Source: Patescibacteria group bacterium (GTDB lineage Bacteria; Patescibacteriota; Minisyncoccia; Portnoybacterales; UBA2143). Taken from it: DNA of 64,000 nt. Location: positions 115,131 to 179,130 of the forward strand of contig JAHJSM010000002.1 of assembly GCA_018830295.1 (NCBI GenBank). The letters run 5' to 3'. The position numbers and the translations under genes were made by a program. The notes beneath the pieces are model-generated. The model was not told the DNA's origin. It ran no database searches and saw only the letters and a program-made list of their open reading frames with translations. Shown here one piece after another: positions 38,815 through 50,182 of this stretch (its first letter is position 1; each line of letters starts with the position of its first letter).

Positions 38815-38995
38815 ATGATAAAAAAGGTTAGACCTTTCGAGTAGAGACATTTCTTAAGGTCTCGCTCAGAAGGTCTGACCTTTTTTCACCCCCTGTATTT
38901 CTCCCCAAACCCCCTCTAAATCTTTTACTCCCCCTTATCCTCCCTAAACCTATTCCTAAGATATTCCTTTTCTAATTTCAAAGATTTTATCTTAA
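38815..38995 (-). repeat. about 170 bp repeat copy 1: 3' end of small-ORF family (…IKSLKLEKEYLRNRFREDKGE stop) plus compound terminator hairpin
   Basis: near-identical to 48590-48750; partial copies at 42445-42540 and 50100-50175. Confidence 0.7.
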
Positions 38996-39111
38996 TCTCT
39001 TTTTATTTCTTTTGGGATTGACAAAGATAAAATAAAAAGCCACAATAAAGAAAGTATGAGATATGTTCTTTAACCGTTGAATAATACCGAAGATAAAAAA
39101 GGAGGTCCCTG

Positions 39112-40452
39112 ATGATATCTAATCTTAGAAGCCCTATATATGTTCAAATAGAAATAACTTCTAATTGCAACAACAAATGCCTGCACTGCTACAACTTTTG
39201 GCGTTATGACCAAACAAATGAAAGGAAAGAATTGTCTATCTCTGAATGGAAAAAGGTGGCTAAAATTTTGGGAGAAAATGATATTTTCTACGCTACTATC
39301 ACTGGAGGCGAACCATTTGTCGCAAAAGAAAAAACATATAATCTTATGAATTTCTTGCGCGAACAAAACATCCGTATAATGATAAATTCCAATGCTACCT
39401 TAATTAATCAAAACGAAGCGGAAAAACTATCAACATATCCAATAGAAATATTTCTCGTATCCCTAATTTCGTCTAACCCGCGGCAACACAATGAAATTGC
39501 TAATTCAAATCTCGCTTTTCAAAAAACTGTTCAAGGCATTAAAAATCTGCAAAAGGCAAAGATCAATTTAGCAATCAATATGGTTGCGAGTAAAATTAAT
39601 TACCAAAATGTCTACACAACAGGCAAATGGGTTTATGAAAATTTAGGTATTAAAAATTTCAGCGCCACGCCAATTTGCCCATCAGTCCAGGAGCATCAAG
39701 TTCTTGAATTAAACGAAAAAGAAACAATAGACACGCTTGGTCAACTCCTCCAATTAAAGAAAGATTTCGGGCTTAATGTGGATATTTTGGAAGTTTTTCC
39801 AACCTGCCTTTTTGAAAATCTTGAAAATGAAATTGTAGAAACATTCTCAAAAAGAATGTGTACTGCCGGAAATACTACAATAACCATCGGATCCGAAGGC
39901 AATATCAGAGCGTGTTCATACGACCAAAAATCTTATGGCAATATATTAAACGAAAGCTTCAATAACATCTGGAAAAGAATGGAAATTTGGCGGAATAATT
40001 CTTTGCTGCCGCCCGAATGCAATGAGTGTATTATAGCAGATAGTTGCGGAGGAGGATGCCGAGTAAACGCCAAAGTAAAACAAGACGGATATTGCGAACT
40101 TAGCAATTTCTATAAAGGCGCGCTGAAGGAAAAACAGGAAAAATTCTTCAAAGAAACATCCGAGATTCAACTGAACAAAAAGTTATCACTATCTAAAAAT
40201 ATTCTCTTTAGAGAAGAAAAAGAAAACAAATTCGTATTGGTGGCAAATTCCATGCATTTTGTTATAGTAAATGATAAAGGGTTGGAAGTAGTAAAACATT
40301 TAAATACCTTAAGTTCTTTTACACCCTCTGAAATAATTAGCGCGCTGAATTTAGACGTAGAGAAAGACAGGAAGTTTTTCGCAGAACTTTTTCAAAAAGG
40401 ATTCTTGTTAGAACCCGCAACCAAGCCGAAAGGAGGTGGCAAAGATGGTTAA
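39112..40452 (+). CDS. radical SAM / SPASM-domain enzyme with C-terminal PqqD-like (RRE-like) extension
   Basis: CNNKCLHC (CX3CX2C) near N-terminus; C-terminal CNECIIADSCGGGC SPASM-type cysteines; last about 90 aa resemble PqqD; SD AAAGGAGG. Confidence 0.8.
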   Translation: MISNLRSPIYVQIEITSNCNNKCLHCYNFWRYDQTNERKELSISEWKKVAKILGENDIFYATITGGEPFVAKEKTYNLMNFLREQNIRIMINSNATLINQNEAEKLSTYPIEIFLVSLISSNPRQHNEIANSNLAFQKTVQGIKNLQKAKINLAINMVASKINYQNVYTTGKWVYENLGIKNFSATPICPSVQEHQVLELNEKETIDTLGQLLQLKKDFGLNVDILEVFPTCLFENLENEIVETFSKRMCTAGNTTITIGSEGNIRACSYDQKSYGNILNESFNNIWKRMEIWRNNSLLPPECNECIIADSCGGGCRVNAKVKQDGYCELSNFYKGALKEKQEKFFKETSEIQLNKKLSLSKNILFREEKENKFVLVANSMHFVIVNDKGLEVVKHLNTLSSFTPSEIISALNLDVEKDRKFFAELFQKGFLLEPATKPKGGGKDG

Positions 40453-40606
40453 CAAGTTGCTCGCGGAAAAAAAAGGGGCTGACGCAAACACTGGCAGTAA
40501 TGAAATCCAGATGTTTAATTCCGCGCTTCAGCCCACGGAAAGCGGTTCAGATAGCAATTACACCAATTGTTATTGCTACGGACCCGCCTATCCCCCCTGC
40601 AAATAA
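40445..40606 (+). CDS. 53-aa Cys-containing peptide (MVNKLLAEKKGADANTGSNEIQMFNSALQPTESGSDSNYTNCYCYGPAYPPCK), candidate RiPP precursor, translationally coupled to the rSAM gene
   Basis: ATG overlaps the rSAM stop (ATGGTTAA); SD AAAGGAGGTG 6 nt upstream; terminator immediately downstream; missing from the ORF track (below length cutoff). Confidence 0.55.
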   Translation: MVNKLLAEKKGADANTGSNEIQMFNSALQPTESGSDSNYTNCYCYGPAYPPCK

Positions 40607-40616
40607 AAGCAGGAAC

Positions 40617-40651
40617 AAAAAAGGGGTCAAAAATTATTTGATCCCTTTTTC
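40617..40651. terminator. bidirectional terminator AAGGGGTCAAA-AATTA-TTTGATCCCTTTTT
   Basis: 9-bp stem (one G-U) plus T-run between convergent genes. Confidence 0.6.
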
Positions 40652-41338
40652 TATTTCACGCTTGATAATTTCTTTAAAAGATTCCTTGGAAAATCTTTTT
40701 ACCAAACCCTTGCTTTCCTCCGCCAAATTTTCTGGAATAACCAAGGGAATTTTGGTTTTTAATTTTAACAACGGATAATTAACCATTACTTCAGACAACC
40801 GCCATAAGAAATCTTTATTCTTTTGTATAAAACTTTGAGGATAAGATTCTGAAACAAATTCCCAATACATCAAATGGCTCAATTCGTGAAAAACCACATA
40901 TAGAGGGTCTCCGTATTCAAGCAAGGGATTGATATAGATATTAGGCGCGCCAATATCATAATCGCCGCCCCACAAGCAAGAGAATAAAAGATAAATATTA
41001 TATTCTTTATATTTCCACTTTATTTCTGTCGCTTCCTCCATCTGCCGAAAAAAAGCATCTTCAATTTTCCGCCACTTTTTTTCTAATTCATTCCCCTTTT
41101 CATCGATTAAACGAACAATCTCGTCTTTGTTTGATTTAATATGCTCTTTAACTTTATCGCGCAAGCCGGAAAAACTTTCGTCCGAACAATTTGGGATATT
41201 ATGATTCACAATGTAAAGAAAGCGGTCTTTGCCTATCACCTTCCTTGCCCCGCTATAGTTATTATCAACAAACCAAAACTCCTTTTCAAAGGATTTGATA
41301 AATTTTAATTTTACATTATTTTTAATCGTCATAATCAT
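40634..41338 (-). CDS. putative HExxH zinc metallopeptidase (leaderless start MIMTIKN after TGGTATAAT)
   Basis: VVFHELSHLMYWEF HExxH motif; ORF-track N-terminus (AIFWYNG) is the translated promoter module. Confidence 0.45.
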   Translation of the reverse strand: MIMTIKNNVKLKFIKSFEKEFWFVDNNYSGARKVIGKDRFLYIVNHNIPNCSDESFSGLRDKVKEHIKSNKDEIVRLIDEKGNELEKKWRKIEDAFFRQMEEATEIKWKYKEYNIYLLFSCLWGGDYDIGAPNIYINPLLEYGDPLYVVFHELSHLMYWEFVSESYPQSFIQKNKDFLWRLSEVMVNYPLLKLKTKIPLVIPENLAEESKGLVKRFSKESFKEIIKREIEKGIK

Positions 41339-48589: not shown

Positions 48590-48750
48590 TAAAAAAGGTC
48601 AGGCCTTTCGAGTAGAGACATTTCTTAAGGTCTCGCTCAGAAGGTCTGACCTTTTTTCACCCCCTGTATTTCTCCCCAAACCCCCTCTAAATCTTTTATT
48701 CCCCCTTATCCTCCCTAAACCTATTCTTAAGATATTCCTTCTCTAATGCG
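48590..48750 (-). repeat. about 170 bp repeat copy 2 (3' ORF fragment plus terminator), interrupted by GC-rich palindrome at 48752-48790
   Basis: near-identical to 38815-38995. Confidence 0.7.
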
Positions 48751-48939
48751 CGCGCCCGAAGCCTGGCTTCGGGAGTGGGCTTCGAGAGTAAAAATATTTT
48801 GCATTTTATAATTTTATTTTCAAATCCCCTCCAAATCTTTTATTTATTTCCTAAAAAGGCTCCTGACGACTTTCTCTGATATTTCTCCACAAAAATAAGG
48901 ACAGAAGTTTATTTTCTGTCCTTAAATGATTGAATTTGT

Positions 48940-49380
48940 TCAAATCGTAATATCAGTCACATCGCCGTAAAGCAATAACAAATCTTTTGGATTGAATTTC
49001 ATCCCAGTAAATTCATCGCCACCTGCTCCTATAACATAAGGTTTTTCCATTAAATTAGCATCAATCACAACCTTGCACTTGTCAAAAAACGCGTATGGCG
49101 GAAGTCCTCCAATTTTAAAACCCGTTAGTTTTTCCACTTCTTCTGGTTTCGCGAAAGAAATTTTTGAGACATCAAAATATTTCTTTATCTTTTTAGTATC
49201 AATTTTTTTATCACCGCTAATTATTGCTGCCAAAAATTGATTTCCAGATTTTAATAAAATACTTTTAATTATAGAGGATGACTTTTCGGAAAGCGCCAAA
49301 GCGGCATTTTCGGTTTGAGCGCCGCTTTTTTTATGTCTTAATATTTTACATTTAGATTTGAATTTTTCTATATTGTTCAT
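48940..49380 (-). CDS. YbaK/ProX-like aminoacyl-tRNA deacylase-domain protein
   Basis: ILLKSGNQFLAAIISGDKKIDTKKIKK...PEEVEKLTGFKIGGLPPYAF pattern of the YbaK editing domain. Confidence 0.5.
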   Translation of the reverse strand: MNNIEKFKSKCKILRHKKSGAQTENAALALSEKSSSIIKSILLKSGNQFLAAIISGDKKIDTKKIKKYFDVSKISFAKPEEVEKLTGFKIGGLPPYAFFDKCKVVIDANLMEKPYVIGAGGDEFTGMKFNPKDLLLLYGDVTDITI

Positions 49381-49402
49381 AATACGCCCCTGTCGCGTTA
49401 AT

Positions 49403-49948
49403 TTACTTCTGATTATACCAACAAGTCGGATCGCTGTTAAGATAATCGCCTGTGTGATGCAATGCTGTCCCTCTACAACCATAGCATATTTGGCTATGTT
49501 TGCATATTTTACATTGCCCTTTTATCATATCCCGAATATTTCGTACATTCTGGAAAATAGATGAACCCTTGATAATTTCAGCAATCTTTTCTCTCGAAAT
49601 TATTCGCACTTGAACTTTTTGTTCTCCTAAAATTACAGATTTTACTAAACGGTGAAGACCATCAAGAATCAACCATCTTCCTTTATTCTTCATAATATCA
49701 ATAGGATGAGATAAATCAGCTTTCATTGTTCTTTTGTATTCTATTTTATATTTTTCAGGATGATTAATTACATCTTTTGGCTTTAATATATACCAAATAT
49801 TATTCTCATTCCAAAATGGAATATCAAAATGCCATTCCAACTCTTTAATATCCATTCGAGCAATAGGCACATCAAGCGCCCAAACCCTTCTTTCATCCCA
49901 ATCAAAATCAAAACCAACTTCTTCTATAATTTTTGGTATTTTTTCCAT
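49403..49948 (-). CDS. ParB/Srx-like nuclease domain protein with C-terminal Cys-rich tail
   Basis: WLILDGLHRL (DGxHR) motif; C-terminal CKICKH...CYGC. Confidence 0.45.
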   Translation of the reverse strand: MEKIPKIIEEVGFDFDWDERRVWALDVPIARMDIKELEWHFDIPFWNENNIWYILKPKDVINHPEKYKIEYKRTMKADLSHPIDIMKNKGRWLILDGLHRLVKSVILGEQKVQVRIISREKIAEIIKGSSIFQNVRNIRDMIKGQCKICKHSQICYGCRGTALHHTGDYLNSDPTCWYNQK

Positions 49949-50182
49949 ATCTCCAATCCCCCTCCAAATCTTTTATTTATTTTCTTAAAAGATTCCTGAC
50001 TATTTATATTATTATTTACAAGATTAAAAGATAATATAGCATATTATATTATTATTTATAACTCCCCCTCAAACGCCTTTTTCGGAACCGATTTTTTCAA
50101 TTTTTTTTTATTCCCCCTTATCCTCCTTAAACCTATTCTTAAGATATTCCTTCTCTAATTTCAAAGATTTTATTTCTATTTT

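Follow-up and report, generated by a model that had tools for sequence, protein, structure and literature searches.

The DNA analysed here is a stretch of 64,000 nt from the genome of a Patescibacteria group bacterium (GenBank assembly GCA_018830295.1, contig JAHJSM010000002.1; hereafter, the window), part of a 744,622-bp short-read metagenome contig (ENA ERZ27247117, k141_539904), and our subject is a small gene of 77 codons, which the window carries once in full and three times as a truncated 3' end within an island of accessory genes. Housekeeping genes (FtsW, MurG, GltX, CTP synthase, DnaG, sigma-70, GroEL, pyrimidine synthesis, EngB and XseA) occupy positions 1-34 kb and 61-64 kb, and the island lies between them at ~35.7-60.4 kb. 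Nearly all of its genes are on the minus strand and are of accessory or defence type, and they encode RadC, RhuM, DUF3800, a type I-like methylase with a specificity subunit, DUF4238, HNH-like, YbaK-type editing domain, AntA-like, transglutaminase-like, UDG, HSDR_N_2, radical-SAM/SPASM, SNase and serine hydrolase proteins. Because related loci place similar gene sets beside XseA and EngB, the island appears to sit at a conserved chromosomal position. Pfam scans of the island open reading frames (ORFs) returned no integrase, transposase or other recombinase. The lone recombinase of the window is a Xer-like gene (5543-6487, plus strand) with a Phage_integrase and a SAM-like N-terminal domain, which is located among the housekeeping genes, ~30 kb from the array.

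A 42-nt core (GAAGGAATATCTTAAGAATAGGTTTAGGGAGGATAAGGGGGA) is found in the island in four minus-strand copies with no more than three mismatches (38929-38970, 42470-42511, 48700-48741 and 50112-50153), compared to no match in shuffled sequence, and the original prediction of four copies of one gene end on this strand, made from the sequence alone, was thus borne out. Around these cores extends a 93-nt repeat family (38907-38999; 42448-42540, 96% identical; 48678-48770; 50090-50182), and a long repeat pair (38779-38976 and 48550-48747) is 92% identical over 198 nt. As had also been predicted, only one copy is a full ORF, which based on the ORF list and its translation spans 42466-42699 (minus strand), encodes 77 amino acids and gave rise to the repeated 3' ends; the other three copies are 3' pieces. 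The first of these, r1 (38925-39013, minus strand), retains the last ~24-27 codons behind an in-frame stop (the translation reads K, stop, KEIKIKSLKLEKEYLRNRFREDKGE, stop), is located on the strand of the intact copy, ~3.5 kb further downstream, and matches its 3' end exactly over 70 nt, with 96% identity over 93 nt. Together, r1 and the intact ORF form a direct repeat of the gene 3' end that brackets a 3.5-kb segment (39014-42465), which encodes only an HSDR_N_2 protein, a ~234-243-aa protein lacking a Pfam family (40634-41365) and a radical-SAM/SPASM protein, with no integrase inside it. Remnant r3 (48696-48747, minus strand) keeps the last 16 codons (ending LEKEYLKNRFREDKGE, stop), and a GC palindrome (CCCGAAGCCAGGCTTCGGG, 48755-48773, minus strand) sits where its homology to the small ORF ends, the position at which an interrupting palindrome had been noticed before. 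Remnant r4 (50105-50180, minus strand) has the last ~22 codons (ending (K)IEIKSLKLEKEYLKNRFKEDKGE, stop) and follows the HNH-like gene (50183-50740) immediately after its stop codon. The earlier estimate of about 20 codons per copy is too high for r3; the conserved 3' untranslated region (UTR) and nested hairpin which had been ascribed to all copies do follow r1 and r3, but the intact ORF is followed by a different hairpin and r4 by neither. All four window copies carry the lineage-specific tail EDKGE, and they differ by four A/G transitions.

Another reading raised at the outset was that the copies might share a terminator with no coding remnant. The shared part, however, is the 3' end of a conserved gene. 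In a search of 5.8 billion proteins, the small ORF had 40 homologues with 70-96% identity and lengths of 45-93 aa, and those with a source name are all hypothetical proteins of Patescibacteria or Parcubacteria. Nucleotide differences among 13 full copies fall mainly at third codon positions, as is typical of coding DNA under purifying selection. When 1.8 billion representatives were searched exhaustively with a profile, no more than 16 clusters at 50% identity came up, all of 31-91 aa and none fused to another domain. Close members of the family end in EKEYLKNRFKE and distant ones in EKEYLWxxIxPK; because the distant EYLWxxIxPK homologues are all single copy, without remnants within ±6 kb, multi-copy behaviour is confined to the KNRFKE subfamily. 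A metagenome scan with back-translated patterns found the gene in at least four loci. The small ORF is a genuine, narrowly distributed Patescibacteria gene. The AlphaFold2 model of its product (mean predicted local distance difference test score 82) shows a disordered, lysine/arginine-rich tail (residues 1-28) followed by a single helix (29-74), and the composition of the protein would suit a nucleic-acid-binding coiled coil. Searches with it returned no Pfam, PHROG or PADLOC family and PDB matches at chance level only.

Several other properties that could have been attributed to this gene were considered and discarded. A phage association, which had been suggested as something to look for, found no support, as the core had no match in IMG/VR and the ORF belongs to no PHROG or PADLOC family. 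Third positions within the core are barely less variable than elsewhere in the gene, so no extra constraint at the DNA level is claimed; an inverted repeat (AAATCTTT...AAAGATTT) bounding the remnant was not supported by folding and showed no covariation on inspection of the copies; and an attC-like or RNA structure in the gene end gave no folding signal on either strand. Rfam contained no family for the repeats even at E values up to 1. The LOOT and DUF3800-V hits that Rfam did produce are neighbours, outside the repeated element.

Beyond the window, we used tblastn over 23 loci from independent assemblies (given L numbers below), and here the suggestion to look for the full ORF in other genomes proved fruitful, in that the layout seen in the window recurs in other Patescibacteria assemblies. 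Seven independent lineages have 1.5 kb or more of sequence downstream, and in five of them (the window, L004, L013, L018 and L021) same-strand 3' remnants lie 1-4.5 kb after an intact copy. In L018 the intact copy is at 10001 and the remnant at 11428, in L021 they are at 10001 and 11274, and in L013 an intact copy at 9953 is followed by remnants at 14080 and 14516. The L004 locus has intact copies at 9989 and 11841, then remnants at 15087 and 15761, with one upstream at 7345 and an internally deleted copy at 9250, and L008 contains two remnants. Overall, seven remnants were counted downstream and three to four upstream of intact copies, and no locus had a fragment made up only of the 5' part of the gene. 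Synonymous differences separate remnant and intact copy in L021 (the intact core reads GAGTATCTCAAGAATCGTTTTAAGGA, and the remnant core is canonical), and in both L013 and L018 the two have different tails; such allele differences are what would be expected if the intact 3' end had come from outside. Two further observations concern single loci. In L031, a full copy (6108-6341) is accompanied by another (1389-1525) from which two internal stretches of the small ORF have been deleted. In L025, near a distant homologue, a large serine recombinase and an AAA_25 protein (8509-9933) lie beside OLD/UvrD (Gabija-like) genes, which points to an integrated element adjoining the small gene in this lineage. 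An apparent difference between L028 and L029/L030 after the small ORF was, on the other hand, merely a scaffold gap of Ns.

Comparison of Patescibacteria assemblies placed gene-order breakpoints 5-60 nt from the small-gene copies, consistent with the earlier proposal that recombination leaves remnants of the gene end at cassette joins. L004 and L008 are 98.7% identical over a 152-aa gene and the remnant behind it, and their sequences diverge 15 nt past the core; in both, the reading frame of the upstream gene runs on into the remnant, where the TAA within CTTAAG ends it. A 143-aa protein of L013 (14246-14677) and L008 (~1400-1846) also ends in frame with KEYLKNRFKENKNK and stop, and is a gene fusion made at a cassette join. 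The gene that follows a remnant in L004 is the one that precedes a remnant in L021, with boundaries 5-6 nt from the cores, and a two-gene cassette of the window (42776-43898) starts 20 nt after a remnant in L021. The HNH-like gene (82.5% nucleotide identity) precedes an intact copy in L011 and r4 in the window, the breakpoint being 30 nt from the core. The closest relative, L031, is 96% identical to the window over 259 nt, a block that comprises the ORF with 6 nt ahead of its ATG and 18 nt past its stop codon and has unrelated genes on both sides. The L031 full copy bears, at 88% identity, the UTR found after r1 and r3, and these two remnants therefore descend from a full copy with this UTR. 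Overall, our results support the view that a real and conserved small gene left the repeats as 3' remnants at joins between unrelated genes.

When ~30 instances were aligned on a 26-nt core (GAATATCTTAAGAATAGGTTTAAGGA), left homology boundaries fell anywhere from codon 47 to 64 and right boundaries were spread over ~40 nt of the ancestral sequence ...GAGGAAATAAATAAAAGATTTGGAGGGGATTTGG, which corresponds to a scatter of about 40-50 nt per side. Such boundary differences from copy to copy point to general recombination and deletion instead of a dedicated site. Assignment to short direct repeats was limited to internal deletions, namely one in P0034, between repeats of AAGGAA, and one in the L004 copy at 9250, between repeats of ATAAAATCT (codons GIKS and KIKS). 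On neither strand is the gene end more stably folded than shuffled sequence (z from -0.36 to +1.23), and no GTTRRRY/RYYYAAC boxes or inverted arms were found on reading the core region, where GAATA is present as a direct repeat. The variable joins, the unstructured gene end and the lack of attC-type boxes all argue against one dedicated crossover site. Furthermore, the small gene is not the only one with such a remnant. Directly upstream of the intact small ORF lies the 3' remnant of a second UDG allele (42700-42760, minus strand), separated by the two-gene cassette mentioned above from the intact UDG gene (43936-44562, minus strand), and in an alignment the remnant is closer to the [UDG][small ORF] junction of L010 than to the UDG gene of the window. 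Because UDG shows the same order of intact gene, inserted genes and 3' remnant, the process is not peculiar to the small gene end, and this pattern points to what may be a general, upstream-anchored process.

Other short elements recur in the island along with the gene ends. The nested hairpin (GGTCAGACC..GAGAC..GTCTC..GGTCTRACC) is far more stably folded than shuffled versions of it (DNA z = -6.35) and, with the G-rich 3' UTR, spans 38820-38924 after r1 (hairpin of ~65 nt, 38820-38884) and 48587-48695 after r3 (hairpin 48587-48655), both on the minus strand. A third nested hairpin (57355-57413, plus strand), located by BLAST of L002/L009 against the window (93%), has the opposite orientation and no adjoining gene remnant; in L002 and L007 the hairpin is 96-97% identical and adjoins different DNA, and it is present in L009 as well. 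In the UTR itself (38885-38935 and 48656-48705, minus strand), the transcribed strand has four runs of four to five Gs (GGGGG..GGGGG TTT GGGG ..GGGGG), which could form a G-quadruplex. The hairpin after the intact ORF (GGGGACAGTCCC...GGGACTGTCCCC, 42409-42439, minus strand, z -4.44) is followed by a terminator/promoter (TP) motif and resembles repetitive extragenic palindromic (REP) sequences, with more copies at 13777-13811, 24868-24880, 47297-47345, 50782-50812, 57511-57541 and 59621-59651. This REP-like hairpin is thus also seen in the housekeeping part of the window, as it is in related genomes.

The TP motif (AAAAATCGCC-N5-GGCGGTTTTTTGGTATAAT) occurs on the minus strand at 38777-38811 and again at 34735-34765, 36026-36060, 37916-37950, 41345-41378, 42368-42400 and 48547-48581 (seven matches, 0.06 expected), always between 34.7 and 48.6 kb and never in the housekeeping region at 1-34 kb. 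It reads as a -35 box (TCGCCA), 17 nt and a TG-extended TATAAT, with a CGCC..GGCG stem-loop inside and a T-run, and is found in L004 and in the distant genome L029. The genes downstream of the motif differ between the window and L002, and relative to L002/L007 the window has an insertion of ~490 bp made up of a TP motif and the AntA-like gene (48095-48586, minus strand), directly after the T-run of the nested hairpin. Close relatives are few, and this AntA cassette is the one clear case of an insertion or deletion ending at a TP motif. The AntA-like gene (48150-48526, minus strand) seems to be split over two frames (a 40-aa ORF at 48404-48526 and a 99-aa ORF at 48150-48449) and is probably a pseudogene. 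Finally, a 58-nt leader with a ribosome-binding site (...GTCAGGAGCCTTTTTAGGAAATAAATAAAAGATTTGGAGGGG) lies at 48815-48872, with a second copy at 49948-50005 (minus strand); its motif has six matches in the window, all in the island (0.46 expected). Its 3' half is the sequence that follows the small-ORF stop codon in many genomes, and the leader, ending in AAAGATTTGGAGGGG, precedes several cargo genes in the window and in L004. The ~170-bp element of the original prediction does not hold up as one unit, given that gene remnant, terminator hairpin and TP motif are each also found separately elsewhere, and what had been seen is a chance pairing of separate reusable modules.

Among the neighbouring genes, the one encoding a membrane SNase-type nuclease (36995-37909, minus strand; Pfam SNase) deserves mention, as a homologue comes immediately after the small ORF in L004 and L029/L030, and in L026, L018 and the window the SNase gene is near the small ORF or a remnant. 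The small ORF and SNase may have been an ancestral pair, with the gap between them acting as an insertion hotspot, and the fact that r1, not the intact copy, adjoins SNase in the window is consistent with this. The radical-SAM/SPASM enzyme (39112-40452, plus strand) is encoded on the strand opposite to the array, near two small ORFs (36136-36327 and 38491-38721, plus strand) which are paralogous (63 and 76 aa, 81% nucleotide identity over 205 nt), and the three may form a peptide-maturase/precursor set. The enzyme also matches PADLOC pVip models (E 2e-18), which may reflect just the shared radical-SAM core. The 181-aa ORF at 49403-49948 has no significant Pfam family and contains a DGLHR motif that, in our reading, looks ParB-like. 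As for structured RNAs, Rfam detected a LOOT RNA (47906-48037, minus strand; 70.9 bits, gathering score 46.4) directly upstream of a gene for a 143-156-aa membrane protein (47416-47886), and the block of both is 92-96% identical in L002, L007 and L009, where the neighbours differ. A DUF3800-V RNA (57595-57692, plus strand; 66.9 bits) adjoins the DUF3800 gene (57710-58412, minus strand), which is apparently split into overlapping ORFs (57710-58189 and 58164-58412), possibly by a frameshift.

The interpretation that we favour, and regard as reasonably probable, is that the array is made up of an intact gene with three 5'-truncated fossils, and that the small gene serves as a homology patch for the exchange of accessory genes in a hypervariable island, since it is nearly the sole DNA common to otherwise unrelated gene arrays. 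According to this model, an event anchored by homology in the small gene would bring in new downstream genes from incoming or sister DNA, and the far end would join illegitimately inside or just past the resident copy, displacing its 3' end. The product would be an intact gene, new cargo, the displaced 3' remnant and the old downstream genes, in this order. Microhomology deletions in this A/G-rich, internally repetitive gene could then trim the copies further, and the terminator hairpins and TP motif would be separate, reusable linkers that offer further exchange points. For r4, simple deletion of an L011-like full copy would be the most economical route. The variable breakpoints, the hairpin-less gene end, the recombinase-free island and the UDG remnant all favour upstream-anchored homologous plus illegitimate recombination over an integron-like process, and we infer homology-facilitated illegitimate recombination (HFIR) after DNA uptake. 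Patescibacteria are reported to carry competence and homologous-recombination genes (PMC12455944), and HFIR was proposed to explain orphan immunity genes after effector replacement in type VI secretion system (T6SS) loci of Vibrio (PMC9711863). Acquisition from outside is favoured by the synonymous differences in L021, the different tails in L013 and L018, and the foreign UDG allele. In the window, where all copies share EDKGE, the exchange could equally well have taken place within the population or the genome.

A number of considerations weigh against this model. No event was directly observed. Within-genome duplication or gene conversion could yield the window copies without any DNA uptake; being upstream of the intact copy, r3 and r4 require extra steps, such as lost intact copies or plain deletions; and L002 and L007 have downstream sequence but no remnant. 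Moreover, the model has to assume upstream anchoring or selection to account for the absence of 5'-only remnants, and instances were sought through core and tblastn hits, so that very short or core-less fragments would escape. Persistence of the 3' end might possibly be due to upstream anchoring, to selection for the ribosome-binding region that it carries, or to selection against truncated proteins.

A first alternative is that remnants are kept as cis elements, with the purine-rich gene end (AAGGAGAGGAAATAA...) and AAAGATTTGGAGGGG supplying a ribosome-binding site, translational coupling or a stop codon for neighbouring genes, in which case the repeats would be a product of selection and have no part in recombination. 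A start codon is indeed found no more than 45 nt after the gene end in ~14 of 26 instances (such as L004 15117, L008 428, L018 11446 and L021 11298), the upstream gene of L004/L008 and the 143-aa protein of L013/L008 both end within a remnant, and several remnants begin right after an upstream stop codon, suggesting that dispensable parts were trimmed. The window remnants, however, are not placed to serve a start codon, as r1 and r3 precede a terminator and r4 and the next gene, which carries a leader of its own, are 157 nt apart. Because it also leaves the clustering of breakpoints at the copies unexplained, we consider this explanation unlikely as an account of the array, although it is compatible with the homology-patch model and is in that respect no true alternative.

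There is also a slim chance that cassettes are captured by site-specific recombination in the manner of integrons or att sites, with the ~26-nt core as the site and a recombinase provided from elsewhere, for example by the Xer-like gene. The core is found in all ~30 instances with variable sequence on either side, in L004/L008 and L013/L008 a remnant and its upstream gene move together, much as integron cassette and attC do, the 70-nt exact repeat of the intact copy and r1 surrounds a 3.5-kb segment, and the genes are co-oriented. A site-specific enzyme would be difficult to reconcile, however, with homology boundaries that scatter instead of falling at one nucleotide, with a core region that has no secondary structure, attC boxes or inverted arms, and with the same remnant pattern at the UDG gene end. 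In addition, no integrase was found in or beside the island or the related loci examined, save for the serine recombinase near the distant homologue in L025, and since the instances were found through a core search, the universality of the core is partly a matter of ascertainment. A bolder version of this idea is that the small, basic coiled-coil protein and the ~26-nt core are themselves a minimal, dedicated system for cassette exchange, in which the protein, alone or with Xer, recognises the core and captures or releases cassettes of a gene plus core. We regard this as quite improbable; if true, it would be a functional analogue of the integron assembled from unrelated parts.

Diversity-generating retroelements (DGRs) are said to be common in Patescibacteria, and the survival of 3' ends only would be the outcome of incomplete reverse transcription of an mRNA, whether DGR-like or target-primed, but such an origin is very improbable given that no reverse transcriptase (RVT_1) was found among the window ORFs scanned or beside KNRFKE-type loci, that the few A/G transitions between copies do not resemble adenine-specific mutagenesis, and that the flanks common to remnants and upstream genes fit recombination of DNA. 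Lastly, even though the window stems from a short-read metagenome assembly, the idea that the copies are an artefact of collapsed repeats, as had been feared, or a chance similarity can practically be dismissed, as no core match is expected by chance, the copies carry point substitutions and each has unique flanks, their longest exact match (95 nt) is shorter than the k-mer of 141 implied by the contig name k141_539904, and the same architecture is present in independent assemblies from NCBI, JGI and ENA.

Patescibacteria have tiny genomes with few recognisable mobile elements, and the means by which they turn over their genes are poorly understood. Their accessory and defence gene content nonetheless varies between strains. 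The locus described here offers a concrete route for such turnover, with a conserved 230-bp gene and a few conserved terminator/promoter linkers acting as portable homology, and displaced 3' fossils that record past insertions. On the practical side, the small gene and its 26-nt core could be employed as markers for variable islands and for cassette joins in fragmented metagenome assemblies.

How does this array compare to systems already known? In integrons and integrase-less attC arrays, as here, co-oriented single-gene cassettes are found, and a recurring short element travels with the upstream gene. The island differs from them in having no IntI, no attC-type hairpin and no core boxes, in the variable positions of its crossovers, and in that many of its cassettes carry their own promoter. 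Integrative elements inserted at gene 3' ends also leave an intact gene and a same-strand partial 3' copy on either side of the inserted segment. Here, however, the segment contains no integrase, the length and boundaries of the repeat vary, and several remnants can be found in one array.

Rhs and contact-dependent inhibition (CDI) toxin-tip cassettes form sequential displacement arrays, and the resemblance to these and to their T6SS counterparts extends to the crossover in a conserved upstream gene, the non-homologous join near the resident 3' end, and the order of an intact gene followed by same-strand displaced fragments that record successive acquisitions. Intact and displaced copies come from different alleles in those arrays, as they do in L021, L013, L018 and the UDG pair, but not among the four small-gene copies of the window. 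In those arrays a large functional gene provides the anchor, and variable toxin tips are displaced together with their immunity genes; in our case, the anchor is a gene of 77 aa, it is the conserved 3' end of this gene that becomes displaced, and any accessory gene can be cargo.

Linker-mediated shuffling by promoter-early stem-loops (PeSLs) was described in T4-like phages (PMC2839356, PMC4122927). PeSLs, like the TP motif, are short intergenic motifs that combine a sigma-70-type promoter with a terminator stem-loop, and they flank small, variable, co-oriented genes, providing homology for insertion, deletion and replacement; in keeping with this, the TP motif is confined to the island and starts the AntA insertion directly after a nested-hairpin terminator. 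The setting differs, as we are dealing with a streamlined cellular chromosome of Patescibacteria, flanked by housekeeping genes and not part of a phage, and so do the sequence of the TP stem (CGCC/GGCG) and the nature of the commonest linker, which here is a protein-coding gene with its 3' fossils. By analogy, this suggests that the solution adopted by phages with PeSLs may have arisen in a cellular lineage as well. The array thus belongs to a known kind, that of recombination-anchored variable arrays which leave displaced gene ends behind, and what sets it apart is an undescribed, tiny anchor gene, the PeSL-like linkers alongside it, and the Patescibacteria host.

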